Source of the DNA: an uncultured bacterium | Lineage (GTDB): Bacteria > Vulcanimicrobiota > CADAWZ01 | Assembly (NCBI GenBank): GCA_902791745.1 | Contig: CADAWZ010000003.1 | Coordinates: 1-45,758 of the forward strand | Direction: 5' to 3' | Length of the DNA stretch: 45,758 bases | Shown here: positions 18,781 through 30,406 of the stretch, one piece after another | Layout: the number at the start of each line of letters is the position of its first letter | Numbering within the stretch: position 1 is the stretch's first letter | Translations under genes and position numbers: made by a program | The notes under the pieces: model-generated | What the model saw: only the letters and a program-made list of their open reading frames with translations | Told to the model about the DNA's origin: nothing | Database searches by the model: none

Positions 18781-20013
18781 TTGAATAGAAAAGAAATTAT
18801 AGCAGGAATAGACCTCGGATCGAAATATGTAAGATGTATTGTTGCCGAAGCCTCTGATAGCTCATCTGTAGAAATTTTAGCAATAGGAAAATCTCAGTCA
18901 AGAGGTATAAAACAAGGTAGTATAATAAATATAGGTGATGCTTATAGGTCTATATTAGAAGCAGTACAAGATGCAGAAAATATAGCTGAATTTAAATTAA
19001 AAAATGTATATATTGGATTAAGTGGAAAATTTGTTATTTCAAGTTTAGAACTTGCTGGCATTGCAATAACAAGTCAAGAAAAAATAATAACAGAAAATGA
19101 TATTCAAAGAGTAAAAGACCAAGTTAGACTTTTAGTAAGGCACCCTGAATATGATTTAATTCAAATAGTCCCTTGTGAATACATAGTAGATGGATTTGCA
19201 GGAATAAGCAATCCTAAAGACATGTCAGGGTTAAGATTAGAACTATCTGCAATGATGATTTTAGGTCTAAACACCTATCTTTCCAATATATCAAAAGCAA
19301 TAGAAGAAGCAGGACTTGAAGTTGAAGATAATGGATTTGTACTTGGAAGTTACTGCTCAGCTATATCTACTTTATCTGAAGAAATGAAAGATATTGGAAC
19401 CCTATTGATGGACATAGGAAGCGAAACTACAAATATAATCATATACAGAAATAAAAAGATGATAATGTCAAAGGTTATTCCATTCGGTGGAGAAAATTTG
19501 ACAAGGGATATTTCAAATGTTTTTGGAATAAAACCAAATGAGGCAGAAAGACTTAAAATAACAAAAGGAAATGCATGTTTAGATTTGGTAGAAGAAGATG
19601 AAGAATTATTGGGTGATTCTATAGCCTCAAATACTTCTGTTAAAATATTGAGAAAAGAATTAGCAGAAGTAATAGAAGCGAGAATGAACCAAACATTGAC
19701 CAGAATAAAAAAAGAATTGAGCCAATATCTAAAAACTCCAATAGGAGTAATTGTATTAACAGGTGGAACATCAAATTTAGAAGGAATTGAAACTTGTGTC
19801 GGAAGATTTTTTGATCGCCCTGTTAGAATAGGAAAAGTGATAGAGCCCAAAGGGCTTTCAGACGAAATGTCTGTAAGTGAAAATTCAATGTTGATGGGTC
19901 TTGTGTTACATGGAGCAAGTAAAGCAGAAAGAAAAACTGATAAACCACCATCAAAAAATAAATTTTCAGATTTTTTTGAAAAAGTTTTACAATTTGGAAA
20001 AGAAATTTTTTAA
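18781..20013 (+). CDS. ftsA: Cell division protein FtsA
   Basis: GIDLGS, DIGSETT, GGENLT.DI, AERLK, VLTGGTS; directly upstream of ftsZ. Confidence 0.95.
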   Translation: MNRKEIIAGIDLGSKYVRCIVAEASDSSSVEILAIGKSQSRGIKQGSIINIGDAYRSILEAVQDAENIAEFKLKNVYIGLSGKFVISSLELAGIAITSQEKIITENDIQRVKDQVRLLVRHPEYDLIQIVPCEYIVDGFAGISNPKDMSGLRLELSAMMILGLNTYLSNISKAIEEAGLEVEDNGFVLGSYCSAISTLSEEMKDIGTLLMDIGSETTNIIIYRNKKMIMSKVIPFGGENLTRDISNVFGIKPNEAERLKITKGNACLDLVEEDEELLGDSIASNTSVKILRKELAEVIEARMNQTLTRIKKELSQYLKTPIGVIVLTGGTSNLEGIETCVGRFFDRPVRIGKVIEPKGLSDEMSVSENSMLMGLVLHGASKAERKTDKPPSKNKFSDFFEKVLQFGKEIF

Positions 20014-20086
20014 ATTTTAATTAAGGGTCTGTTCCCAAGAATCTCATCTCTTTTTATGAGAGATTCAAGAATGGAGGTTATATATT

Positions 20087-21283
20087 TTGAATACATCCAA
20101 AGGTGATAAATACATTCCAGCTGGTATAGAAAAATTGACACAATCAATAAATAAATCACAACAAAATAATGTGTCAAAATCAACTATAGACTTAAACACA
20201 CCAGAAAAAATAGCTGGAATAAAAGTTGTAGGAGTTGGTGGTGCTGGCTGTAATGCAGTCAATCGTATGATCCATACTGGATTAAAAGGCGTTGATTTTA
20301 TAAGCATAAATACAGACCAACAGGCATTATCATATTTACAAGATGACACAGCTCGAATAATTCCTATAGGTCAAAACACAACAAAAGGAGTAGGAGCTGG
20401 TGGAAATCCTGAAATCGGTAAAAAAGCAATAGAAGAAAACAGAGCCGAAATAGTTTCAGCTCTTCAAGGTGCTGACATGGTTTTCATCACTGCTGGAATG
20501 GGAGGAGGAACAGGTACTGGAGCTTCTCCAACTGTTGCCGAAATAGCTAAAGAGATAGGAGCTTTATCAGTAGCTGTAGTAACAAAGCCATTCTCTTTTG
20601 AAGGCAGAATGAGAAGTATAGTTGCCGAAAAAGGCATTGCCCAATTAAAAGAAAAAGTAGATGCCCTTATCGTTATTCCAAACGACAATTTACTAAAAGT
20701 AGTAGATAAAAAGACATCTCTTATAGAAGCATTTAAAGTTGCAGATGATGTATTAAGATATGGAGTTCAAGGAATAACAGATATAATGACAATACCTGGT
20801 CTCATAAATGTCGATTTTGCAGATATACAGACAATTATGTTAAACAGTGGCTCAGCACTTATGGGTATAGGAATGGCTAATGGTGATCAAAGAGCTGTTG
20901 CAGCTGCAGAAGAAGCAATTAAAAGCACTCTTCAAGATACATCTATTGACGGTGCTAAAGGTGTATTATTCTGCATAACTGGCTCAAGTTCAATGACACT
21001 TGCAGAAGTTGACGAAGCTGCTCGAATCATATCACAAGCAGTCGACCCAGATGCAAAAATAATATTTGGAACTGTAATTGACGAAAATTATGCAGATAAT
21101 ATAATGGTTACTGTAATAGCTACTGGTTTTTCTTCAGCAGAAGATAACATGTCTGTAATGCAGGAAGAAGAACAACAGGATTATCCACAATATAATACAT
21201 ATGCTCAGCAGACTTCTGATGACTATGATCAAATACCAGCTATTCAGAGCACAAGAGATAAATTTTTAAATAGAAGAAGATAA
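20087..21283 (+). CDS. ftsZ: Cell division protein FtsZ
   Basis: [22 protein letters not shown] signature, T7 loop [10 protein letters not shown]; TTG start with GGAGG at 20073-20077. Confidence 0.98.
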
Positions 21284-21327
21284 TTTTTATTAAAACCTCC
21301 ATAAAAAAGTAAAAGGACATTGAAAAA

Positions 21328-21657
21328 ATGGCAGATTTAATGCAACAAGCAATGGAAGCCCTAAAAGTTATGAAGGATCAAAATATAAATTTAGATGATC
21401 TAATTCCAAAAGATACTTATGGGCTTGTAAAAAGTGTAATAGCTTCACTTGGTCAACAAGCATGGATAAATTTAGGCATGCAACCAAATCCACTGACACG
21501 CAAAATTGAAAAAGACCTAAAACAAGCAAAACTTGCTATAGATTGTACTGTAAGTCTATGTGAAATAATGAAACAATATTCTTCTCCAAAAGAAAAAACA
21601 GAGTTAGATACACTTGTACAAAACTTACAGTTAAATTTTGTACAGCAAAATCAGTAA
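21328..21657 (+). CDS. DUF1844 domain protein
   Basis: SLGQQAWINLG..PNP.T....KDLKQAKLAID and C-terminal LQLNFV pattern. Confidence 0.8.
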   Translation: MADLMQQAMEALKVMKDQNINLDDLIPKDTYGLVKSVIASLGQQAWINLGMQPNPLTRKIEKDLKQAKLAIDCTVSLCEIMKQYSSPKEKTELDTLVQNLQLNFVQQNQ

Positions 21658-21672
21658 AATTCAATATTATTA

Positions 21673-21701
21673 TTGCATTTTGTTTATAATTCTGTTATAA
21701 T
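21673..21701 (+). promoter_or_regulatory. Putative sigma70 promoter with extended -10 for pspA
   Basis: TTGCAT (21673-21678), 17-bp spacer containing TG at 21693-21694, TATAAT (21696-21701). Confidence 0.6.
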
Positions 21702-21858
21702 ATTACAAGAGGATAAATATTATAATTAGACGAAATAATTAGCTATTAATTTGTAAATTAAAATTATATATAAAATATAATTGGGGTAAATTGTATTCTA
21801 TTCTGTGAATATTTTTCACAAGTTCTAATCATAATGTTATGTGAAAGGATATAATGCC

Positions 21859-22629
21859 GTGTTTAAAAGACTAAGTAAAATTTTTAAGGGTTTTATGAGC
21901 CTATTTATTAAAAATATCGAAACCCAAAACCCAGAAGCTCTTCTTGAAGCTCAAAAAGAAGAATTAAGACAAAAAATTTCTCAATTCAACACAAATTTAG
22001 CAAAACAAGCTGGTTTTGTTGCAAGATTAGAAAGATTTGTTGCAGAACGTGAAAAGAAAGAAAAAGAATTACTTGCTAAAGCTCAGGCTAACTTCAAAGC
22101 AGGTAACTCTGAAATAGCTGGAAAAGCTGCATTTGAAAGAAAGACTGTTCTTGGAGAATTAGAAAATTACAAAGCACAACTTGTCACAGCTAAACAATCT
22201 TATGAAAACCTTGTAAAAACCAAAGAAGTTACAATAAAAGAAGCAAAATCAAAACTTGAATCTTTACAGCAAAAACTTTCTCAGGTAAAGATGAAAGAAG
22301 CAGAAGCAGAACTTCAAGAAATGTCTCAATCCATGGTTGGAGAACTCGGTGCTGGTGGCGATACAATGAATCGTCTTGAAGAACAACTCAATGAAAGATT
22401 AGAACTTGCCACAGGAAAAGCACAAGTTGCAAAAGATGCTGCAGATTTCTCAGATATAACAATGAAAGAATCAGAACAGAAAGCTCTCGAGAGCCAAGCT
22501 CTTGCAGAACTCGCAGCTTCAATGGGAATGGATTATTCACCTTATGGTCCAGCACCTACTGCTGAAAAAACAATGGGACCACAAGAAGGAGTTGCATTGC
22601 AGAAAAATGCAGATTTAGACATAATTTAA
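21859..22629 (+). CDS. pspA: PspA/IM30 (Vipp1/ESCRT-III superfamily) protein
   Basis: Amphipathic N-terminal helix (FKRLSKIFKGFMSLF), E.QNPEALLE hinge, long coiled coil, AGNSEIAGKA turn, C-terminal ALAELAASMG; GTG 21859 has an AAAGGA RBS. Confidence 0.88.
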   Translation: MFKRLSKIFKGFMSLFIKNIETQNPEALLEAQKEELRQKISQFNTNLAKQAGFVARLERFVAEREKKEKELLAKAQANFKAGNSEIAGKAAFERKTVLGELENYKAQLVTAKQSYENLVKTKEVTIKEAKSKLESLQQKLSQVKMKEAEAELQEMSQSMVGELGAGGDTMNRLEEQLNERLELATGKAQVAKDAADFSDITMKESEQKALESQALAELAASMGMDYSPYGPAPTAEKTMGPQEGVALQKNADLDII

Positions 22630-22683
22630 CAAAAATAACGACAATATCCCAAAATGCAAAAAAAATGGGAGATTTAATAGTTT

Positions 22684-23541
22684 ATGAAAAATAAAATAAC
22701 TTATTGGGATTTACTGAAAGAATGTTTTGGTTTACCCTTAAACCTGCTATTTCTTACTTTTATGATAATATTTGGACCTGCTCTCATTGGTTCAATGCCC
22801 ATTGCATACATAACAGGTGGAATAATTGAACTTCTTTGGTTATTATTTGGTGGTAATACCCCAATAATCCAAAATAGAATTAAACAAAAAGAACAGAAAA
22901 AAATATTAGCAGAATGGAACAAAAAGAAAAATAGAATTCTTGAAAAAATTTCAGCAATTGGAAGAAATAGATTTTTCAAATTTGAAAACACTGGAAAAGC
23001 TATTTCATCAATAATAAACCAATCTAAAAAAGATGGGCTTAGTGTAGATACTTCAAAATTAAAAACAGTAAATCAACTTTTATGGCTTTCATTAAAACTT
23101 CTCTATTCTCGTGAACTGATGGTAAAAAATACAAAAGGTAATACAAAAGAAATGTTGGTTACCAAAATCAACAACATGAAAAAGAATAGAAATAATGAAA
23201 CATCAGAAAAACTTATAAAAGAACTCGATTCTACAATAAAAACAATGGAACAGAGACTCGAAACCTTTGATAAAGTCTCAGAAGATATGAAATCAATTGA
23301 TTTAAATCTTATGAGAATCGAAGAGCAATTAGAACTTCTCAAAGATTTAGCTACAGTCGATGTCCAAAATTCAAAAGGAAGTGTATCTAAACAAATAGAT
23401 AATGCACAACAATCAATAGATGAAAATCAGGAATGGATGGAAACAGCAAAAGATTTGTTTGCTCCCCTTGATGATGATCTGACAGAAACGCCCCCTGACG
23501 ATGTTTTCGTTCAAGGTGTTTCATCTGGTGGGATATTTTAG
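22684..23541 (+). CDS. Hypothetical membrane-anchored coiled-coil protein
   Basis: Two N-terminal hydrophobic segments, then a long helical region and an acidic C-terminal tail. Confidence 0.8.
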   Translation: MKNKITYWDLLKECFGLPLNLLFLTFMIIFGPALIGSMPIAYITGGIIELLWLLFGGNTPIIQNRIKQKEQKKILAEWNKKKNRILEKISAIGRNRFFKFENTGKAISSIINQSKKDGLSVDTSKLKTVNQLLWLSLKLLYSRELMVKNTKGNTKEMLVTKINNMKKNRNNETSEKLIKELDSTIKTMEQRLETFDKVSEDMKSIDLNLMRIEEQLELLKDLATVDVQNSKGSVSKQIDNAQQSIDENQEWMETAKDLFAPLDDDLTETPPDDVFVQGVSSGGIF

Positions 23542-23547
23542 GACACT

Positions 23548-23601
23548 ATGGCATTAATTCCACCGCTTCTATAAAGGCGGAAAATTAATTGCCATTTTTT
23601 T
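23548..23601 (+). terminator. Intrinsic terminator-like hairpin
   Basis: ATGGCA-TTAATT..CCGC / GCGG..AATTAA-TGCCAT followed by a T run. Confidence 0.65.
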
Positions 23602-23616
23602 ATAATATGCTATAAT
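23589..23616 (+). promoter_or_regulatory. Putative sigma70 promoter for the AAA+ gene, overlapping the terminator
   Basis: TTGCCA (23589-23594), 16-bp spacer, TG-C-TATAAT (23608-23616). Confidence 0.5.
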
Positions 23617-23645
23617 ATAATAAAAAATATTGGAGGCTCTATTAA

Positions 23646-25421
23646 ATGACAGAAATTGCTTCTTGGGCAAAAACAATGCAACAATACTTTATTGCAGGAA
23701 CTTCTTCTCAATTTATTCTATACGGAAATATTTTTGACTATGTCCCTGTCAAAGAAAGAAATAAACTGGAATTCATATCATTGAGAACTTTTTTAAATGA
23801 TGTAATGTTTGCACCATTTGATGTTGTGATATTCTATGATAGAGGCAAGGGAATAAGAGTAAAAAAAGGACAAGAAGAATTTCGTCGTTTTTTAGCAGGA
23901 TACGATAGTTTCAACCATACCAACTATGCAACATTTATGGGCAATTTACCAAGGGATCCCAAAGTTGCAATAGACTTGATCGATAGATTTATACAGTTAA
24001 ATCTACAAAAAGTAAAATTTTCAGAAAATGACAGAAATGCAGATGGAACACTAAAATCATATACAGTTCCTGTAAAGATAGCCATTGTCGTAGATTATGC
24101 CCAATATGTAGTTCCAAGAGGCGAGCTCATGCAAATGGTAGGAAATACAAGTGAAGTCCTCATAAAAATACTCGATTGGGCTTCTGATCCTGCAATAACC
24201 AATGCCCATGTTGCAACTTGTCTTATAACAGAAAATTTGCAAGAACTAAACACACTTCTTATTGAAAGTCCATACAACACAAAAATAAAACTTCCAATGC
24301 CTGATGAAAATGAATTGGCAGATTACTGCAGATTTTTATCAGAAAGAATGCCTGATTATTATGAATATTGCAAAATAGAACCAAGATTGCTCGGAGCTGG
24401 AATGTTAGGTCTCACAAAAGCTGGGGTAAATTCAATAATCTCATTTGCAATAAAAAATAAACAAGAACTAAATCCAAAGATTCTATCACAAAACAAAAAA
24501 AGCTATATAGAAAAAGAATGTAACGATCTACTTGAGTTCATAGAATCTCCATATAATCTTGATATGGTAGCAGGTCATAGAGCTGCAAAAAAATGGTTAA
24601 AAGAAGATGCAGAATTGATAAGAAATGGAAAATTGAGATCGATTCCAATGGGTTATCTTTTGACAGGAGGAATTGGTACTGGTAAAACATTTTTGGCAAA
24701 TTGTTGGGCTGGTGAGCTTGGAATTCCATTTGTAAAATTTAAAAATTTCAGAGATAAATGGCAAGGTTCAACAGAAGGAAATCTTGAAAAAATATTTACA
24801 GTTCTCGATGCCTTAGGTCAAGTCATTGTATTTATTGATGAAGCGGACCAATCAACAGGAAAAAGAGAAGGTGGCGGAGGCGATTCTGGAGTATCAGGCA
24901 GAGTCTATTCAATGTTAGCCCAAAAAATGAGTGACACAAAAAACAGAGGAAAAATAATTTGGATACTTGCAACATCTCGACCTGACTTACTTGAAGTCGA
25001 TTTAAAACGACAAGGAAGACTTGATGTACATATTCCACTTTTTGCACCTCAAACCGATGAAGATCGAAATGAATTATTCAAAGTAGTTGCCAAAAAATCT
25101 GGTTCAGATTTAAAAGATGAAGATATCCCTGAACTTCCAGCTGGTCTATCTTCATTAGGTGGAAACGAAATGGAGGCATTACTTGTAAGAGCTCACAGAC
25201 AATTTGATCTACATACAACAGATGAATCACTTGCAGAAATACTCAAAAAATTGTTAAAAGATTTTAGACCTTCTGCATATACAGCTGCTCTCGAATATAT
25301 GGATTTAATTGCAGTAAAAGAATGCACAGACTCAATGTTCTTACCAGAAAAATACAAAACAATAACTCCTGAAGAACTGGACGAAAGAATAGAACAAGTA
25401 AAACATAGAATGAATATCTAA
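23646..25421 (+). CDS. Classic-clade AAA+ ATPase with a degenerate N-terminal AAA-like domain
   Basis: Walker A GGIGTGKT, pore loop DKWQGSTE, Walker B VFIDEAD, sensor-1 ATSRP, Arg finger LKRQGRLD; N-half has FILYGN and IVVDYAQ remnants; GGAGG RBS. Confidence 0.92.
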   Translation: MTEIASWAKTMQQYFIAGTSSQFILYGNIFDYVPVKERNKLEFISLRTFLNDVMFAPFDVVIFYDRGKGIRVKKGQEEFRRFLAGYDSFNHTNYATFMGNLPRDPKVAIDLIDRFIQLNLQKVKFSENDRNADGTLKSYTVPVKIAIVVDYAQYVVPRGELMQMVGNTSEVLIKILDWASDPAITNAHVATCLITENLQELNTLLIESPYNTKIKLPMPDENELADYCRFLSERMPDYYEYCKIEPRLLGAGMLGLTKAGVNSIISFAIKNKQELNPKILSQNKKSYIEKECNDLLEFIESPYNLDMVAGHRAAKKWLKEDAELIRNGKLRSIPMGYLLTGGIGTGKTFLANCWAGELGIPFVKFKNFRDKWQGSTEGNLEKIFTVLDALGQVIVFIDEADQSTGKREGGGGDSGVSGRVYSMLAQKMSDTKNRGKIIWILATSRPDLLEVDLKRQGRLDVHIPLFAPQTDEDRNELFKVVAKKSGSDLKDEDIPELPAGLSSLGGNEMEALLVRAHRQFDLHTTDESLAEILKKLLKDFRPSAYTAALEYMDLIAVKECTDSMFLPEKYKTITPEELDERIEQVKHRMNI

Positions 25422-25436
25422 AGAAGGTATAAAAGC

Positions 25437-26474
25437 ATGTCGGTTTTTGATTCAATAAAACAAATGTTTAACAACAAAGACGATTCAAGTAAACACTATA
25501 AAAAAGGTGATTATTCAAGTCTTGTTGCCGAAACGATGAATTCATTAGATCAACTTGAAGGAGTAAAAATGGATAACTCCTATGTGTCACCTTATGAAAA
25601 ACGAGATTTTGCAAACAGTGTTGAAATAATGGATAAAGACCCAAAAGCAGAATTATTTTCAAGACATGCTGCTCTAAAAGCTAAAAATATAAACAAAAAT
25701 ATTCCAAAACAAACAGAAGATTCATTTGCAAGTATGATGAAAAAAACTGTAAATTCACCAGAAAATCAAATGAATCAAAATCCTATTATTTCTAAAGAAG
25801 ATTCTTTTTCAACATTAATGAAAAAGAAAGTGAGCAGTTACAAAGAAGATTCAACACAATTTCATACACAAAAATCAGGAGAATTAAAAAGAATAGAATT
25901 AGAAAACCGAAATGAGAACATAAATATAAGAAAAGAAAAAGAACCAAGAGTTGCTCAAGGATTACTTCAATTACTTGAAAATAAAGAACAACATTCAACA
26001 GACAATACGAACTTAGAATCATTAGTTTCCAAAGGTGAAGAATGGAAAAATTTTGACGAAATTTATGCTTTGACAAATGTTCCTGTATCAAATGACGGAA
26101 TGTCTATAGAAACTGTAATAGGAATGTCTTCCAAAATGTCAACAATGCCATTGGAATTGAGAAAAAATTCAATTTTAAGTTATCTGTCAAGCAAAAATAT
26201 AGCTCCAATATCAATAATTGAAGACGGAGAAAGAAAACTTAAAGCTATCGACACATACGAATCATTTATTGAAAACAGAATAAACAAGAGAAAAAAAAGG
26301 ATAAAATCAGAAATAGAACTCTTACAAAAGAAGATATTAGAACGAGAAGAAATACTTACAAATGATGAAAAACATTTCAGTGAGTGGAAAAATGAAAAAA
26401 CAATACTTGAAGATATGATGAAAGAAGCATTTGAATGCTTAGGGAAATCTAATAATGACGGAATCAATAATTAA
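25437..26474 (+). CDS. Hypothetical protein: low-complexity N-half, helical/coiled-coil C-half
   Basis: 345-aa ORF 15 bp after the ATPase stop; overlaps the dedA start. Confidence 0.8.
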   Translation: MSVFDSIKQMFNNKDDSSKHYKKGDYSSLVAETMNSLDQLEGVKMDNSYVSPYEKRDFANSVEIMDKDPKAELFSRHAALKAKNINKNIPKQTEDSFASMMKKTVNSPENQMNQNPIISKEDSFSTLMKKKVSSYKEDSTQFHTQKSGELKRIELENRNENINIRKEKEPRVAQGLLQLLENKEQHSTDNTNLESLVSKGEEWKNFDEIYALTNVPVSNDGMSIETVIGMSSKMSTMPLELRKNSILSYLSSKNIAPISIIEDGERKLKAIDTYESFIENRINKRKKRIKSEIELLQKKILEREEILTNDEKHFSEWKNEKTILEDMMKEAFECLGKSNNDGINN

Positions 26475-27150
26475 CTGTGTAGAATATTTTTCATCTTACG
26501 CCCATATATGGGGATTAATTTTTATATTTTTATTCATGACAATGGAAAGTACAATACTTCCATTACCAAGCGAAATAGTAATGATTCCTGCTGGATTTAT
26601 GGCTTACAGATGTGAACTTCTATGTCGCTCTTTTTGGCCAGATTTTTTCTTAGCTGTAATAGCTGGAATACTCGGTTCAATATGTGGAGCTTGGATAAAT
26701 TACGCTGTATCTTTAAAATTAGGGAGACCAATTTTATACAAATACGGTAAATATTTCTTCATAAAAGAACATGCTTTAAAAAGAGCTGAAGAAATATTTA
26801 ATAAATATGGAGATATGGCAACATTTGTATGTAGATTAATACCTGTGTTAAGGCATTTAATATCAATACCTGCAGGATTATCAAAAATGAATCCAAAGAG
26901 CTTTACATTATATACTGGTTTAGGTGCTGGACTTTGGATGTTCATTTTAACAGGGATAGGTTCTTATTTAGGAGTAATAGCTGGCTCAAAAACGAGTTAT
27001 AGAGAAATCATCGAAATGGGAGAAAAACTATTACATGAACATTTCTTAGTCATAATTATCTCTGTTATATTGCTTGCTGTAATATATAGTTTTATACATA
27101 AAAAAGTAATGGGGGAAAATGATAAGAAGGAGGAAAAAAAAGATGAATAA
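26455..27150 (+). CDS. DedA family membrane protein
   Basis: MESTILPLPSEIVMIPAGF, GAWINY..S...GR, CRLIPVLRHLISIPAG. Confidence 0.93.
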   Translation: MTESIINCVEYFSSYAHIWGLIFIFLFMTMESTILPLPSEIVMIPAGFMAYRCELLCRSFWPDFFLAVIAGILGSICGAWINYAVSLKLGRPILYKYGKYFFIKEHALKRAEEIFNKYGDMATFVCRLIPVLRHLISIPAGLSKMNPKSFTLYTGLGAGLWMFILTGIGSYLGVIAGSKTSYREIIEMGEKLLHEHFLVIIISVILLAVIYSFIHKKVMGENDKKEEKKDE

Positions 27151-27604
27151 ATTTATTGGTTTAATTTCTGCTTTTGCTATGTTTATTGCTTTATCTTGTA
27201 GTGTCAGTGCTTATGACGATCCACTTTTAAGTAGACCACAACCAATGGAGAGAAAATGTAATTATATTCGTTTTTCACAAGATTACTATGAGAATAATTA
27301 CGGAACTCAATATGTTTACAATAAACCATCTTACAGACCTATAGTTGCATCGCCTAATGATAGATATCTTCCAAAACACATTATAAAATCTAACAATGAT
27401 CCTGTTGAGACTAACGATATATTTGGAACACAACCGACATACACACCTATAAATAAGTCTCCCATATATAATCAAAATATTCCAAATAGTGCAATAAAAA
27501 ATAACAACTTAAACACTAATAATTCTTATGGGACATATCCTTGGAATGTAAAATATACTTATACACCAGCAACACAGATAAAATATACACCTATCCACAA
27601 ATAA
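27143..27604 (+). CDS. Hypothetical secreted protein (Asn/Pro/Tyr-rich)
   Basis: ATG 27143 after AGGAGG; signal-peptide-like MNKFIGLISAFAMFIALSCSVSA. Confidence 0.7.
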   Translation: MNKFIGLISAFAMFIALSCSVSAYDDPLLSRPQPMERKCNYIRFSQDYYENNYGTQYVYNKPSYRPIVASPNDRYLPKHIIKSNNDPVETNDIFGTQPTYTPINKSPIYNQNIPNSAIKNNNLNTNNSYGTYPWNVKYTYTPATQIKYTPIHK

Positions 27605-27606
27605 CT

Positions 27607-28287
27607 ATGACAAAATATATTCCAACGATAGAAGACTTAAAATCCATAAATATTTTTTCATCGTTAAATGATAAAGAGCTAAATTTGATAAAAAAATTTA
27701 GCTCTAAAATTTCTTATACAAAAAACACTATAATTTGTCTAAGTGGCGACCCTGCTACATTTTTTGCAGGAATAATAAAAGGTAAAATAAAGGTATCTTC
27801 TTTTTCTGAATCAGGAAAAGAAATTGCCTTTTATTACCTATACCCCAAAGATTGCTTTGGGGAAATGTCAATATTTGACAAAAAGTCATACAGATCAGCC
27901 ACTTTGACAACCGTTTCAAAATCAGAAATAATAATAATAAAAAATGTTGATTTTATTAGACTAATAAATGAAATACCTTCTCTTTTTATTAAATTAGGAG
28001 AAATTCTTGCAGATAGATTGAGACATTCTAATAAAAAAGTAGAGTCAATGTGTTTCTTTACATTAAAACAAAAAGTAACAGATTTTTTAATTGAATGTTG
28101 TGAAAAATCAAATAACTATGTCTGTTCACAAAAAGAAATAGTAGAATTTACAGGTGCAAATAGGGAAAGTATAAGCCGTGTAATATCTGAAATGAGAAAT
28201 AATGGAATAATTTTAAAATCTGAAAAAAATAATTTATTAAAAATAAATTTGGAGAAATTAAAATCGTACAATGAAAAAAATAAATGA
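27607..28287 (+). CDS. Crp/Fnr family transcriptional regulator
   Basis: cNMP-binding domain (GKIKV, CFGEMS, RSAT) and C-terminal HTH (SQKEIVEFTGANRESISR). Confidence 0.92.
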   Translation: MTKYIPTIEDLKSINIFSSLNDKELNLIKKFSSKISYTKNTIICLSGDPATFFAGIIKGKIKVSSFSESGKEIAFYYLYPKDCFGEMSIFDKKSYRSATLTTVSKSEIIIIKNVDFIRLINEIPSLFIKLGEILADRLRHSNKKVESMCFFTLKQKVTDFLIECCEKSNNYVCSQKEIVEFTGANRESISRVISEMRNNGIILKSEKNNLLKINLEKLKSYNEKNK

Positions 28288-29041
28288 CAATCTTTATATT
28301 TTCCACTATCCCCTATATAATTTCAACTGTTCTCTATTAAAAACAGATGATTTTATATTTGTTATAGATACATATTTAGGTCCCAATGGTATACAAGATC
28401 TAAAAGATTTTGTGGAAAAAAACAAAGACAATAAAAAAATATATATAATAAATACACATTCTCATTATGATCACATCTGGGGAAATTGCCTTTTTAAAAA
28501 TTGTCAAATAATATCACATAGATTATGCAGAGAAAAAGTTTTATCTGATGGTGAAAAAATTCTAAATGAATTTAAAGAAAAAGAACCTAAATTAATTTTA
28601 GGAGATATAGAAATAAAAGCACCAAATATAATTTTTGAAGATGAATTGACTTTTTTTTCAAATAATATTTCTATAAAATTAAAGCATTTTAGCGGTCATA
28701 CAAAAGATAGTATTGTTATTATAATTGAACCATATCACATTTGTATTGCAGGCGATCTTGTTGAAGAACCTTTTCCGATTGTCAGTGAAGATGATAGCGA
28801 TTTAAAAGAATTTATATCATCTCTCGAAACTATAGATAAAATGAATTTTGATTTTATTATACCTTCACATGGAACAAGATTTGATAATAAATTAGTAAAA
28901 GAAAATTTATCTTATTTAAAACAGTTAGAAAGCAATTCAATTTCAGAGGATTATTGTAAAAAAAAACATATAACAAGTGAATTTTATTTAGAGGCACATA
29001 GACAAAACATGGAATATGTTATTAATTCGGAAATTAAATAA
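28271..29041 (+). CDS. MBL-fold metallo-hydrolase
   Basis: NTHSHYDHIWGN (HxHxDH), GHTKD, AGD, IPSHG. Confidence 0.92.
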   Translation: MKKINDNLYIFHYPLYNFNCSLLKTDDFIFVIDTYLGPNGIQDLKDFVEKNKDNKKIYIINTHSHYDHIWGNCLFKNCQIISHRLCREKVLSDGEKILNEFKEKEPKLILGDIEIKAPNIIFEDELTFFSNNISIKLKHFSGHTKDSIVIIIEPYHICIAGDLVEEPFPIVSEDDSDLKEFISSLETIDKMNFDFIIPSHGTRFDNKLVKENLSYLKQLESNSISEDYCKKKHITSEFYLEAHRQNMEYVINSEIK

Positions 29042-29058
29042 TTGGTTTATTTTCTACT

Positions 29059-29183
29059 AAGCCAATTTTTGGATATAATACACTCACTTAGACAGTTTTT
29101 TCGCAAATTAAGAGCTTTTTGATTATATCTACTATGAAAAAAACTGATGTGTTCGTTTTATTATATCGCACAAAATTGGCTAA
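29059..29183. mobile_element. MITE-like hairpin element, copy D (internal part, outer TIRs eroded)
   Basis: AGCCAATTTTTGGATATAATA...TATTATATCGCACAAAATTGGCT; near-identical to the reverse complement of 42152-42274. Confidence 0.8.
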
Positions 29184-29244
29184 TTCAACTTATTTAAAAG
29201 CCTAATTAACAACAGACGACTAAAAAAATGAAAAGGGGGAAAAA

Positions 29245-29859
29245 ATGAATCTTTTTGAAGGACTGTCAAAAACACTTAAACAAGGTACAGAATTGGCAAA
29301 AAAAGGGGCTGAAATAATAGCTAAACAAACAGAAAAATCTATAAAAATCGAATCCTTAAAAGCAGATATAACGACAGAAAAAAAACAACTTGATAAAAAA
29401 ATGAAGCGTTTAGCTTCAAGAATATATTCCATGTATGAAAAAAATGAGATAGAAGACCCTGAATTGATAGAAATGTGTAAAGAAATAAAAAAAATAAAAT
29501 GGAATATAGAAAAAAAATATTCTGAAATTGAAACACTAAGAAAAACAACTGTTTCTCTTAAAGATGAACCTGAAAAAGATCCTTGGGAAGATGACGAAGA
29601 AAATTTCTTTGAAAATAGTGATGATGAAGATAAAGAAAAAATAGAAGAAACACCCAAAAAAGAGGAAATAGAACAAAAAGAAGAAAAGCCCAAAGAAAAC
29701 AAGAAAAAAGAAAAGAAAGTAGTAAAAGTTAAAACAAAAAAGAAAATAAAAATTAAAATCAAAGATTTAGAACAAGAAGAATATAATAAGAAAAAAGAAG
29801 AAAAAAAAGATGACGACAAAAAAGATTCTATTAGCGACAGCGAACAAACACAAAATTGA
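29245..29859 (+). CDS. Hypothetical coiled-coil protein with Lys/Glu-rich tail
   Basis: GGGGG RBS-like site; helical N-terminal ~100 aa followed by a charged low-complexity tail. Confidence 0.72.
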   Translation: MNLFEGLSKTLKQGTELAKKGAEIIAKQTEKSIKIESLKADITTEKKQLDKKMKRLASRIYSMYEKNEIEDPELIEMCKEIKKIKWNIEKKYSEIETLRKTTVSLKDEPEKDPWEDDEENFFENSDDEDKEKIEETPKKEEIEQKEEKPKENKKKEKKVVKVKTKKKIKIKIKDLEQEEYNKKKEEKKDDDKKDSISDSEQTQN

Positions 29860-30406
29860 AGAAATTAAATATTTACTTCAAGGAATACCTTATGAAATAG
29901 TATCTGTTCTGGATTTTGAAAATATAAAAGAAGTAAAAGAAGGAAAAGATACATATCTTGAAAATGCTTCTTTAAAAGCACTGGGATATTCAAAACAAAC
30001 TGGCATTTTATCACTTGCAGATGATTCAGGTCTTGAAATAGATTGCCTTGGTGGCAAGCCTGGAGTTATGTCATCAAGATTTTTAAGTGAAGCAAAATCA
30101 TATAGTGAAAAAAATAGTATGCTCCTTGAAATGATAAAAAATGTACCACAAGAAAAAAGAGGAGCAAGATTTGTTTGCACAGCAGTTTTAGCTTATAATG
30201 GAAAAGTTATTAAATCATTTGTTGGTGAATTAAAAGGAAGTATAGCATTTGAAAAAGCAGGACACGAAGGATTTGGATATGATCCAGTATTTTATGTGCC
30301 TGAATATAAAACAACACTTGCTTCAGTTCCTGCAAATATAAAAAATCAAATAAGCCATAGAGCAAATGCAATGAAGCAAGTTAGAGAATATTTATTAAAT
30401 ATATAA
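29810..30406 (+). CDS. rdgB: Non-canonical purine NTP pyrophosphatase (RdgB/HAM1)
   Basis: LATANKHK, ENA.LKA, ADDSGL, PGVMSSR, GFGYDP, KNQISHR. Confidence 0.96.
   Translation: MTTKKILLATANKHKIEEIKYLLQGIPYEIVSVLDFENIKEVKEGKDTYLENASLKALGYSKQTGILSLADDSGLEIDCLGGKPGVMSSRFLSEAKSYSEKNSMLLEMIKNVPQEKRGARFVCTAVLAYNGKVIKSFVGELKGSIAFEKAGHEGFGYDPVFYVPEYKTTLASVPANIKNQISHRANAMKQVREYLLNI

Follow-up and report, generated by a model that had tools for sequence, protein, structure and literature searches.

The locus analysed here, in which pspA lies close to a gene for a AAA+ ATPase, raises the question of whether bacteria possess a counterpart of Vps4. PspA and Vipp1 have been placed in the ESCRT-III superfamily in an article whose pertinent passages leave the equivalent ATPase open (PMC8281802), and in the relevant parts of reviews on bacterial ESCRT-III a Vps4-like ATPase appears to be absent in bacteria (PMC7619361). 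We analysed a stretch of 45,758 nucleotides from an uncultured bacterium (the window), for which a model's sequence-only reading had proposed a membrane-remodelling module of five genes. Our reading, to which we assign a probability of roughly 55%, is that the locus is a reduced member of a system composed of PspA, the membrane protein TMCC, a tandem AAA+ ATPase and, frequently, the helical protein HEL, and that the ATPase recycles or remodels the PspA polymer.

The locus and its surroundings

The five co-oriented open reading frames are all present on the plus strand, where the sequence-only reading had placed them: pspA (21859..22629; GTG start, 256 aa), the gene for TMCC, a 2-TM helical protein without known family (22684..23541; 285 aa), the AAA+ ATPase gene (23646..25421; 591 aa), the gene for HEL, a helical protein without Pfam family (25437..26474; 345 aa), and a gene for a DedA/VTT membrane protein (26455..27150). 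The start of pspA is preceded by AAAGGA, 9 nt upstream of the GTG at 21859, and PspA orthologs begin at the same MF/WKR as the window protein. The dcw cluster, from mraW to ftsZ, lies upstream as had been noted, but pspA does not directly follow ftsZ, from which a DUF1844 gene (21328-21657) and 200 nt of spacer separate it. No ABC ATPase, permease or PBP-OmpA gene is located between pspA and TMCC. A Pfam scan of most window ORFs of at least 100 aa, the DUF1844 gene and positions 21841-28287 found no PspB/C/F or Lia-type domain, in line with the earlier description, with the proviso that a PspB-sized gene outside 19000-30000 would escape detection. Metatranscriptome-labelled runs from two studies, in which 57-80% of the words sampled from 21300-27300 were present, gave weak evidence.

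The terminator that had been proposed between the second and third genes is borne out. An intrinsic-terminator-like hairpin on the plus strand (23548..23602) separates the TMCC and ATPase genes; it consists of a long hairpin at 23548-23595, the inner stem of which is listed by the terminator scan, followed by U7, and the fold of the surrounding 116 nt (23535-23650) has a minimum free energy of -23.7 kcal/mol (z = -2.63; 2 of 200 shuffles as stable). A sigma-70-like match on the same strand, TTGCCA-16-TATAAT with TG (23589..23616; 11 of 12 positions), lies 5' of the ATPase gene, and GGAGG is found ahead of that gene at 23632-23636. Since promoter-like sites are not in excess across the region (28 found, 35.3 expected), the former is to be regarded as a mere consensus match. 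Terminator and promoter-like site divide pspA-TMCC from ATPase-HEL-DedA, in contrast to the tight coupling seen in other loci. This arrangement would suit the view that the genes are mere neighbours without a functional tie; against the linkage across phyla, the co-occurrence in related genomes and the docking result described below, that view is scarcely credible.

Domains of the ATPase, PspA and their partners

The ATPase consists of two domains. D1 (residues 1-295; 23646..24530, plus strand) is a degenerate domain of the AAA fold that lacks Walker A/B motifs, and D2 (residues 296-591; 24531..25421, plus strand) combines a classic-clade AAA module with a family-specific C-terminal region. 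D1 has no Pfam match, and hhalign of D1 against D2 yields nothing. Its AF2 model has a pLDDT of ~90, and in structural alignment with VIA-align, model residues about 1-290 superimpose on single AAA modules, one example being 5ubv_B (Z 12.6, rmsd 3.7, 200 aligned). In D2, Pfam AAA (PF00004) matches residues 338-464 only, with 92 bits. The ATPase carries the motifs GIGTGKT, FIDEAD, KWQG and KRQGR, which we take to be Walker A, Walker B, the aromatic pore loop 1 and the second region of homology with two arginines. GIGTGKT, DEAD, KW.G and KR.GR are invariant across 23 sequences (alignment A1; residues G344-T348, D398, E399, W372, G374, R455 and R458), and by sequence D2 retains all catalytic and pore-loop residues, comprising Walker A/B, pore loop and Arg finger. 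Its C-terminal region is conserved within the family (AVKECTD..FLP). No MIT domain was found in the ATPase, residues 1-295 being modelled confidently as an AAA-type alpha/beta domain with a lid. Three features proposed from the sequence, the intact C-terminal module with its pore loop, the degenerate N-terminal domain and the lack of an MIT domain, thus stand. The AF2 model of D2 is poor (pLDDT <50 over much of residues 338-465), and the hexamer and the pore geometry discussed below are therefore assumed from family knowledge.

The NCBIfam models for CDC48 (79 bits), FtsH (72), PAN (63) and CdvC (38) all score far under their cut-offs, and D2 is best described as Cdc48/FtsH-like. Assignment of the ATPase to the Vps4 family, with whose pore loop the sequence-only reading had compared KWQG, was rejected on three grounds: no MIT domain, tandem AAA-fold modules instead of the single module of Vps4/CdvC, and a CdvC equivalog score (38.2 bits, cut-off 650) below those of the CDC48, FtsH and PAN models. 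The architecture resembles that of the type II double-ring proteins Cdc48/p97/VAT, Rix7, NVL and Pex1/6. Foldseek aligns the whole ATPase model to their D1-D2 chains (E about 2e-10), they also provide the best PDB sequence matches (VAT, E 3.6e-37), and some members of the group likewise have one degenerate ring. Unlike these proteins, the ATPase has lost all nucleotide-binding motifs from D1, whose sequence shows no detectable similarity to that of D2; it also has no N-terminal double-psi-barrel, and its C-terminal region is family-specific.

Judged from sequence comparisons, PspA is a member of the PspA/IM30 family and of the ESCRT-III superfamily, within which it forms part of a distinct PspA subfamily. 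PF04012 (PspA_IM30) matches residues 7-226 of the 262-aa ORF with 48.5 bits (cut-off 33.9), and a profile of 24 orthologs finds the solved Vipp1 of Synechocystis (7o3w) with E 1e-5 over positions 1-186 (E 8e-4 for the window PspA as a single sequence). The amphipathic N-terminal helix (MF.R..L.KGF.SLFI) is conserved in the subfamily. The extra C-terminal tail noticed in the sequence is borne out and contains a conserved motif, [KR]x[ILM]GP, represented in the window by AEKTMGPQ (residues 235-242; 22561..22584, plus strand). This motif, which is new here, occurs within the final 70 residues in 63 of the 65 full-length orthologs, with G240 and P241 invariant in alignment A2, and was not found in the second PspA of the genome. 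The gene for that second PspA adjoins DUF4178.

TMCC has two N-terminal hydrophobic helices followed by a cytoplasmic helical bundle (AF2 pLDDT 84) and a conserved acidic/proline C-terminal tail (DDDLTETPPDD). It gave no significant Pfam, PDB-sequence or fold match, fold searches returning generic helical bundles only, and its hhalign probability with PspA is 5%. Snf7 is absent among the Pfam matches listed for the 24 TMCC members scanned, and the Snf7 model had no match to the window locus at E<=10, in a search that stayed below cut-off in all 14 control genomes as well. The pairing of pspA with a gene for a small membrane protein resembles that of PspA and PspM (Rv2743c) in M. tuberculosis. 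The Rv2743c Pfam model had no match in the genome of the window at E<=10, so that no homology to PspM is claimed. An Atlas feature search returned an Rv2743c-family cluster (score 0.86), which we treat as a lead only.

HEL has a conserved C-terminal core of ~160 aa (DA..RDqALDaYE.F ... W...K...E); among the HEL sequences listed, its N-terminal ~185 aa occur only in the window and two relatives of the same genus. No Pfam family was found for it, and hhalign gave probabilities of about 1-2% against PspA and TMCC. The fifth protein is assigned by its sequence to the DedA family (VTT_dom 88.7 bits; UptA equivalog 114 bits, cut-off 250).

Conserved linkage and the variant in the genus

We surveyed the gene neighbourhoods of the best 80 of 483 confirmed ATPase matches. 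These loci are mostly MAG contigs and phylogenetically non-independent, and they span Acidobacteriota, Planctomycetota, Armatimonadota, Gemmatimonadota, Rifleibacteriota, Omnitrophota, Xenobia, Pseudomonadota-labelled MAGs and others. A PspA ortholog (E 1e-40 to 1e-67) is encoded on the same strand in 64 of the 80 loci, and a same-strand TMCC gene lies directly 5' of the ATPase gene in 68, with a median gap of 12 nt and a 4-nt overlap in 22 of 69 gene models. When the count is restricted to the 41 loci that have 6.5 kb or more of sequence on each side, PspA is present in 37 and TMCC in 36; the four without PspA within 8 kb are L006, L043, L048 and L059. HEL, searched with an HMM from 20 homologs, occurs in 26 of the best 80 of 483 loci, nearly always directly 3' of the ATPase gene (in L009 it lies ~3 kb downstream), and also in the five relatives compared. 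Linkage of pspA to the ATPase gene in other genomes, on which the sequence-only reading had staked its proposal, therefore extends across phyla, and it also appears as a pattern of presence and absence among 41 relatives. Seven of these relatives have a close ATPase (at least 66% identity), six of them together with the subfamily PspA; the seventh genome is 69% complete and its contig truncated. The other 34 do not carry a close ATPase-PspA pair, two of them having a diverged ATPase (38-39% identity). We conclude that PspA, TMCC, the tandem AAA+ ATPase and HEL constitute a widely conserved four-part system.

The window locus belongs to an operon class known from the in silico work of Ravi et al. 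(mSystems 2024, PMC11237479). As described in the main-text passages of that article, these operons encode PspA, PBPB+OmpA, a permease, an ABC ATPase, a TM 'Snf7' protein and a protein with an inactive AAA and a AAA module; a dyad of PspA and tandem AAA without ABC genes is described as well, and the same ESCRT-III/Vps4 analogy is drawn. The window shares with them a pspA gene adjoining that of a two-AAA protein with an inactive N-terminal module, together with a TM-anchored helical partner, and the long ABC form is present in the organism's own family. Unlike the long form the window has no ABC/PBP-OmpA part. A Snf7-like nature of its TMCC found no support in hhalign against PspA or in the Pfam and fold searches. 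HEL, the PspA tail motif and the docking to D1 receive no mention in those main-text passages, supplements aside. A full-text literature search found no experimental study of the operon class.

Components of an ABC importer are frequent in the best 80 of 483 loci (PBP in 58, permease in 46, ABC ATPase in 49), and the commonest layout is PspA-PBP-Perm-ABC-TMCC-AAA (23 of 85 architectures). Two genomes of the same family (G003 and G005) and one of the same order (G006) have PspA-PBP/OmpA-permease-ABC-TMCC-AAA-HEL, away from ftsZ. In the two other genomes of the window's genus the order ftsZ-DUF1844-PspA-TMCC-AAA-HEL-DedA is kept instead, and no PBP-OmpA protein was detected in the window's genome (89.8% complete). 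Because the long operon occurs in the family and order and adjacency to ftsZ only in the genus, we regard the locus as a reduced, ABC-less variant. One could argue from the same data that the primary task of the system is to control or serve a wall-tethered ABC importer, with PspA and the AAA+ ATPase buffering the membrane there, and that the genus keeps a remnant of reduced or changed function. We consider this quite unlikely: all four core genes are intact, seven of the 41 full-context loci also have no ABC part, and conservation within the genus, with 96% identity between the ATPases of the three genomes and E-values of 1e-83 to 1e-146 for the other three core proteins, speaks for selection that has persisted in the absence of the transporter.

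The genus-specific order also bears on the proposed inclusion of DedA in a five-gene module, which would act in lipid-carrier handling or, in view of its position after ftsZ, in cell division. The start of the DedA gene overlaps the end of the HEL gene by 20 nt on the same strand, it is possibly co-transcribed with ATPase-HEL in the window, and the order from ftsZ to DedA is kept in the genus. Outside the genus this module is already contradicted. With the window protein as query, DedA was found in none of the best 80 of 483 ATPase loci, and FtsZ in one, on the opposite strand and 7 kb away; in the three other genera of the family and order DedA is absent beside the operon, and their ftsZ neighbourhoods contain neither PspA nor DedA. 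A role for the five genes as a unit is very unlikely. DedA is a neighbour outside the conserved system, its context with ftsZ is a local accident, and confinement of the ftsZ position to the genus removes the link to division by the yardstick of the sequence-only reading itself.

Predicted docking of the PspA tail and a proposed model for PspA turnover

Complex prediction was performed for one pair, the ATPase with PspA residues 165-256, alongside three controls. The pair reached an ipSAE of 0.62 (runs 0.63, 0.62 and 0.62), compared with 0.01 for the best control; 116 of 157 solved complexes attain that mark, as do 2 of 215 mismatched pairs, counts that hold only roughly since our own alignments were used. 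The runs share at least 48% of contacts with a partner pLDDT of at least 49, and the fold of the PspA partner itself is uncertain in the complex (pLDDT about 50). The confident interface comprises PspA 235-242 and ATPase residues 1-2, 4, 8, 11-12, 15-16, 18, 53-58, 188 and 190. It is located on the inactive D1, outside the pore, where residues 8, 11-12, 15-16, 18 and 53-58 form the predicted groove for the tail. Conservation of the contact residues averages 0.71 versus 0.60 for random D1 sets, with 534 of 20000 sets as high, or 59 of 20000 when residues 1, 2 and 4 are left out. The modelling, of a kind that the sequence-only reading had named as a check, supports the view that the PspA tail motif docks in a groove conserved on the degenerate D1. 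No solved complex of this kind was present among the PDB sequence and structure matches, and to our knowledge none has been solved.

We hypothesize that PspA, as an ESCRT-III-type protein, binds to and polymerises on the cytoplasmic membrane via its N-terminal amphipathic helix, and that TMCC serves as a membrane platform. The ATPase, presumably a hexamer, would recognise PspA via the catalytically dead D1, by binding of [KR]x[ILM]GP in the flexible C-terminal tail, and the active D2 ring with its KWxG pore loop would pull PspA subunits from the polymer, which might thereby be recycled or remodelled by analogy with the action of Vps4 on ESCRT-III. HEL is a frequent accessory and may act as a cofactor of the ATPase. 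Most lineages combine the system and a peptidoglycan-tethered ABC importer in a single operon; the genus of the window lacks the importer module. The physiological purpose may be membrane repair or maintenance.

TMCC, rather than PspA, is the most constant immediate neighbour of the ATPase, and could therefore be the true substrate. The ATPase would then extract membrane proteins, TMCC or others, as a quality-control unfoldase in the manner of Msp1/FtsH, with D1-bound PspA as a restraining regulator or adaptor. The frequent overlap of the TMCC and ATPase genes, which makes TMCC an often translationally coupled partner, the conserved C-terminal tail of TMCC and the position of the predicted PspA contact would fit such a role, and there is a precedent in E. 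coli, where inhibition of the ATPase PspF by PspA is established (PMC7619361). PspF, an enhancer-binding protein of the NtrC type, has a DNA-binding domain (PMC11237479, main-text passages); the ATPase of the window resembles it in its predicted contact with PspA, and differs in having no HTH, in belonging to the classic clade and in the lack of pspBC in the window. PspA-ATPase dyads without TMCC exist, however, in five of 85 architectures, among them the bare dyad of L080, with a gap of 4 nt, amid unrelated metabolic genes. Known unfoldases, moreover, recruit substrates by way of short docking motifs in flexible tails, as in the MIT-MIM interaction of Vps4 and the N-domain adaptors of Cdc48, and binding of a tail motif to an N-terminal domain corresponds to this mode of substrate recruitment. 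We therefore consider the extraction of membrane proteins unlikely as the main function.

The operon class is the obvious candidate for a bacterial Vps4-like ATPase. As in ESCRT-III/Vps4/CdvC systems, the gene for an ESCRT-III-superfamily polymer lies beside that of a classic-type AAA ATPase, and the predicted binding of a short tail motif to a non-catalytic domain at the N-terminus of the ATPase parallels the MIM-MIT interaction. The receptor differs, being a degenerate AAA fold, and the system of the window has no ESCRT-I/II-type partners. That Vps4 has a true functional counterpart among bacteria, in which a tandem AAA+ protein reads an 'address' in the PspA tail via its dead D1 and recycles the polymers with ATP, is a tentative proposal to which we give somewhat less than even odds.

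The window itself adds little beyond the motif, the groove and the four-gene form, its ftsZ and DedA context being local. These three provide handles at the bench: the tail motif (PspA 235-242), the D1 groove (residues 8-18 and 53-58) and a four-gene version without the transporter. If the proposal is true, archaea or eukaryotes would not be the inventors of ATP-driven turnover of ESCRT-III-type polymers, recognition of the MIM/MIT kind would have been built from different folds, and this gut lineage, with its ABC-less set of four genes, would possess a minimal, self-sufficient version of the system.

An operon of pspA with a two-domain ATPase gene

The region 21859-27150 holds the five co-oriented genes claimed by the sequence-only reading, found as five ORFs on the same strand. 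They encode PspA (21859-22629; PspA_IM30 in Pfam, 48.5 bits against a cut-off of 33.9), a protein without a family assignment in which two hydrophobic helices precede a helical domain (TMCC; 22684-23541), an ATPase of 591 aa (23646-25421; a single AAA module in Pfam, residues 338-464), a second helical protein (HEL; 25437-26474) and a DedA/VTT protein (26455-27150). The pspA start is the GTG at 21859, which has AAAGGA ahead of it and agrees with the starts of the orthologs. Upstream lies a complete dcw cluster, as had been stated, in the order mraW, ftsL-like, PBP, murE, murF, mraY, murD, ftsW, murG, murC, ftsQ, DUF881, DUF1290, ftsA, ftsZ; a DUF1844 gene (21328-21657) and a 200-nt AT-rich spacer separate it from pspA. 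DUF1844 also follows ftsZ in two genomes of the same genus and in G003 (same family); in G005 (same family) and G006 (same order), no DUF1844 gene was found behind ftsZ. Domains of PspB, PspC, PspF and Lia type were not found in the window ORFs scanned, in line with their reported absence.

Proteins labelled as coming from many phyla share ~50% identity with the ATPase along its entire length. With an alignment of 23 ATPases, 483 confirmed hits were found on one-genome-per-species contigs, and the window's proteins were searched with phmmer against all six-frame ORFs of the best 80 of these 483 loci. PspA is encoded at 64 of the 80 loci, TMCC at 68, and HEL at 11 by phmmer and 26 by HMM; every one of these matches shares the strand of the ATPase. 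Within the same best 80 of 483, 41 loci extend at least 6.5 kb to either side; PspA occurs at 37 of these and TMCC at 36, so that the expected conservation of the pspA-ATPase neighbourhood across phyla is borne out. The full-context loci without PspA are L006, L043, L048 and L059; PspA is also missing from 12 loci with partial context, most of which break off too early on one or both sides for its absence to be judged. The PspA proteins of the loci match with E-values of 1e-40 to 1e-67, far beyond what the general Pfam model gives, and therefore form a dedicated PspA subfamily.

Clustering of the ORFs in the loci revealed three further conserved genes, encoding by Pfam an NMT1/phosphonate-type solute-binding protein fused to an OmpA peptidoglycan-binding domain (PBP), a BPD_transp_1 permease (Perm) and an ABC ATPase (ABC). 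The commonest order is PspA-PBP-Perm-ABC-TMCC-AAA (23 of the 85 loci listed, and 4 more with HEL), and circular permutations occur, such as Perm-ABC-TMCC-AAA-(HEL)-PspA-PBP. Bare PspA-AAA dyads are present at five loci, one of which (L080) lies among unrelated metabolic genes. Ravi et al. (2024; PMC11237479), in the passages dealing with it, describe this long form as comprising PspA, a transmembrane 'Snf7' homolog, a two-AAA+ protein with an inactive N-terminal domain, an ABC ATPase, a permease and a PBPB+OmpA protein.

The gap between the TMCC and ATPase genes is 104 nt in the window, compared with a median of 12 nt elsewhere and a 4-nt overlap in 22 of 69 gene models. Within it, U7 follows a long hairpin (23548-23595), and the surrounding 116-nt stretch has a fold z of -2.63, with 2 of 200 shuffles folding equally well. 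The hairpin, the U7 and the fold statistic bear out the earlier reservation that a terminator separates genes 2 and 3, and this terminator-bearing gap is unusual for the family. A TTGCCA-16-TATAAT match and GGAGG overlap or come after the hairpin. Parts of 21300-27300 occur in 13 RNA-labelled runs, which are stored as contigs and were matched by sampled words; eight of them, from two studies, contain 57-80% of these words, which is no more than an indication of the region's transcription in gut communities.

Two further observations concern the flanks. A perfect 17-bp CRP-like palindrome, TGTGAATATTTTTCACA (21804-21820), is placed 38 nt ahead of the pspA GTG and has no second perfect copy in the window, where matches with at most two mismatches number 10 against 5.2 expected. 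As a Crp/Fnr-family regulator gene is present at 27541-28287, the palindrome could be its operator. The ORF at 27119-27604 encodes an Asn/Tyr/Pro-rich protein of 161 aa with an N-terminal hydrophobic segment and no Pfam or NCBIfam match, and is kept in two genomes of the same genus (E 1e-33 to 1e-37).

The operon in the window's own lineage

Among 41 relatives, a close ATPase (at least 66% identity) is encoded in G000 (the window's own genome) to G006, and two more genomes have one at 38-39% identity. Two genomes of the same genus share the exact order of the window, ftsA-ftsZ-DUF1844-PspA-TMCC-AAA-HEL-DedA and onward. The arrangement in G003, G005 and G006 is PspA-PBP/OmpA-Perm-ABC-TMCC-AAA-HEL, with neither ftsZ nor DedA nearby, and the PBP-OmpA protein was not found in the window's genome (89.8% complete). 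Therefore, the window's genus has a reduced, transporter-less cassette at a new location, and the window is a reduced member of the published operon class.

DedA had been proposed as a member of the module, and the position next to ftsZ as a sign of a possible role in division; both proposals fail, as neither adjacency is kept outside the genus. DedA is found at none of the best 80 of 483 loci and FtsZ at one, on the opposite strand and 7 kb distant. The ftsZ neighbourhoods of G003, G005 and G006 contain no PspA, ATPase or DedA gene. DedA and ftsZ are local neighbours of the cassette. G003, G005 and G006 (loci L103-L108) each have two FtsZ-like genes, 64-75% and 48-56% identical to the FtsZ of the window.

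The profile of the PspA subfamily matches 6 of the 41 relatives, all 6 with a close ATPase; the one genome with a close ATPase and no subfamily PspA has a completeness of 69% and a contig that breaks off upstream. The window's genome has a second PspA (contig C42; 2984-3742 of locus L100, minus strand; Pfam E 9e-13), which has no match to the subfamily profile. It is an unrelated paralog, encoded directly upstream of a DUF4178 gene and divergently from a GAF-GGDEF gene; Ravi et al. (PMC11237479) also note PspA in the neighbourhood of DUF4178. At L098 and L099 (G014 and G020, same phylum), two unknown genes separate the gene of a more divergent tandem AAA protein (38-39% identity) from that of a canonical-looking PspA (118 bits in Pfam) with the tail KTMEP, and the arrangement adjoins a RelA/SpoT gene. 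The pairing of PspA with an AAA protein appears to exist here in a second, older form.

Architecture of the ATPase, TMCC and HEL

In the C-terminal module of the ATPase (D2, residues 296-591), G344-T348, D398, E399, K-W372-x-G374 and R455/R458 are invariant in 23 sequences; we take G344-T348 to be the Walker A motif, D398 and E399 to belong to Walker B, and K-W372-x-G374 to be the pore loop. Residues ~530-591 (25233-25421) form a family-specific C-terminal region with invariant R541, P542, M552-D-L, A556-V, E559, T561-D and F565-L-P and a near-invariant Cys560. The N-terminal 295 residues (D1) have no Pfam match, and hhalign shows no profile similarity between D1 and D2, so that the AAA nature of D1 is read from structure alone. 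The AF2 model, poor for the D2 part, has a pLDDT of ~90 for D1, which matches single AAA modules in VIA-align (5ubv_B: Z 12.6, rmsd 3.7, 200 aligned, model residues 5-286; further FtsH, ATAD1, Msp1 and RFC). In Foldseek, the whole chain aligns to D1-D2 of Cdc48, p97 and Rix7 (E ~2e-10). These fold matches identify the N-terminal domain as the degenerate AAA domain that had been suspected. The D1 family comprises 721 cluster representatives (50% identity) at E ≤1e-3 and 269 at ≤1e-10, of 1.84 billion.

Kinship was judged by score ranks in NCBIfam (CDC48 79 bits, FtsH 72, PAN 63; CdvC 38 against a cut-off of 650) and in the PDB, where the best sequence matches are VAT, Cdc48 and p97. The ATPase has a type II, Cdc48-like architecture. 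It is not a member of the Vps4 family, because it has two modules rather than one and, as noted before, no MIT domain.

In the model of TMCC (pLDDT 84), two helices are TM-like, four others are ~27 residues long and one has 54 residues; the C-terminal tail is conserved as W...G..(E/D)DL..EPPP (DDDLTETPPDD in the window). Searches for relatives of this all-helical protein returned little: the hhalign probability against PspA is 5% (~1% in local mode), Snf7 is absent among the Pfam matches listed for 24 TMCC members, and a profile search of the PDB gave coiled-coil noise only. With the all-helical query, the best Foldseek match has an E-value of 0.3 (HP0958, BAR domains), with CdvB at rank 40 (E 1.6), and the best VIA-align match is a designed protein (Z 9.6), with no ESCRT-III protein among the 50 matches listed. 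None of these comparisons tied TMCC to PspA, Snf7 or a solved fold, and they neither bear out nor contradict the 'Snf7' label published for the membrane partner. A lead to Rv2743c/PspM (Atlas score 0.86) was discarded, the Pfam model finding nothing in the genome.

HEL has a conserved core of ~160 aa (DA..RDqALDaYE.F ... W...K...E), preceded in the window's genus by an extra N-terminal extension of ~185 aa. Its gene directly follows that of the ATPase in nearly all loci that have it, the exception being L009 (~3 kb downstream). HEL has no Pfam family, the Atlas gave only unnamed clusters, and hhalign against PspA and TMCC gave ~1-2%.

A predicted docking site for the PspA tail

The otherwise variable tail of PspA contains an invariant Gly-Pro within the motif [KR]x[ILM]GP (24 orthologs aligned), which reads K237-T-M-G240-P241 in the window. 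Of 65 full-length orthologs, 63 carry the motif within their last 70 residues; of the other two, L061 reads LDLGP and L026 is partly masked. The second PspA of the genome lacks the GP tail motif.

We predicted the complex of the ATPase with PspA 165-256 in three runs with three controls, using the alignments of ATPases and PspA orthologs. In support of the suggested pairing, the prediction scores 0.62 (0.63, 0.62 and 0.62) against 0.01 for the best control; 116 of 157 solved complexes attain this mark, as do 2 of 215 mismatched pairs, counts that are only approximate here because our own alignments were used. The runs share at least 48% of contacts, with a partner pLDDT of at least 49. The confident interface is exactly PspA 235-242, placed against the first helix of D1 (8, 11-12, 15-16, 18), 53-58, 188 and 190, in a predicted groove that includes the invariant or near-invariant A8, M11, F15, G18, F55 and F58. 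Conservation of the contact set is 0.71, compared with 0.60 for random D1 sets (534 of 20000 as high); when residues 1, 2 and 4 are left out, 59 of 20000 random sets are as conserved. PDB searches returned no solved complex of this kind, and it therefore seems unlikely that the score reflects a structure already known to the predictor. The model supports, short of demonstrating, binding of the PspA tail to D1.

The predicted binding would fit just as well with a role of PspA in regulating an extractase whose substrate is TMCC, which we consider unlikely, and also with a system whose main purpose lies with the ABC importer, which we regard as somewhat less probable still.

The operon class and its analogy to Snf7/Vps4 were published in 2024 by Ravi et al. 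(PMC11237479), and full-text searches gave no experimental study of the class. Our additions are the tail motif, the predicted docking site on D1 and HEL as a recurrent fifth gene, some of which, like ABC-less variants, the supplement of that article may list, together with the demonstration that DedA and ftsZ lie outside the system. A 2025 review states, in its passage on this point, that a Vps4-like ATPase appears absent in bacteria (PMC7619361). In our best reading, which leans on the predicted complex, the operon would represent a division of labour like that of Vps4, made up of different components: the inactive D1 would recognise the tail of PspA, and the active D2 would unfold PspA or extract it from membrane-bound polymers, with TMCC as the putative anchor of the machine and HEL as its possible assistant.
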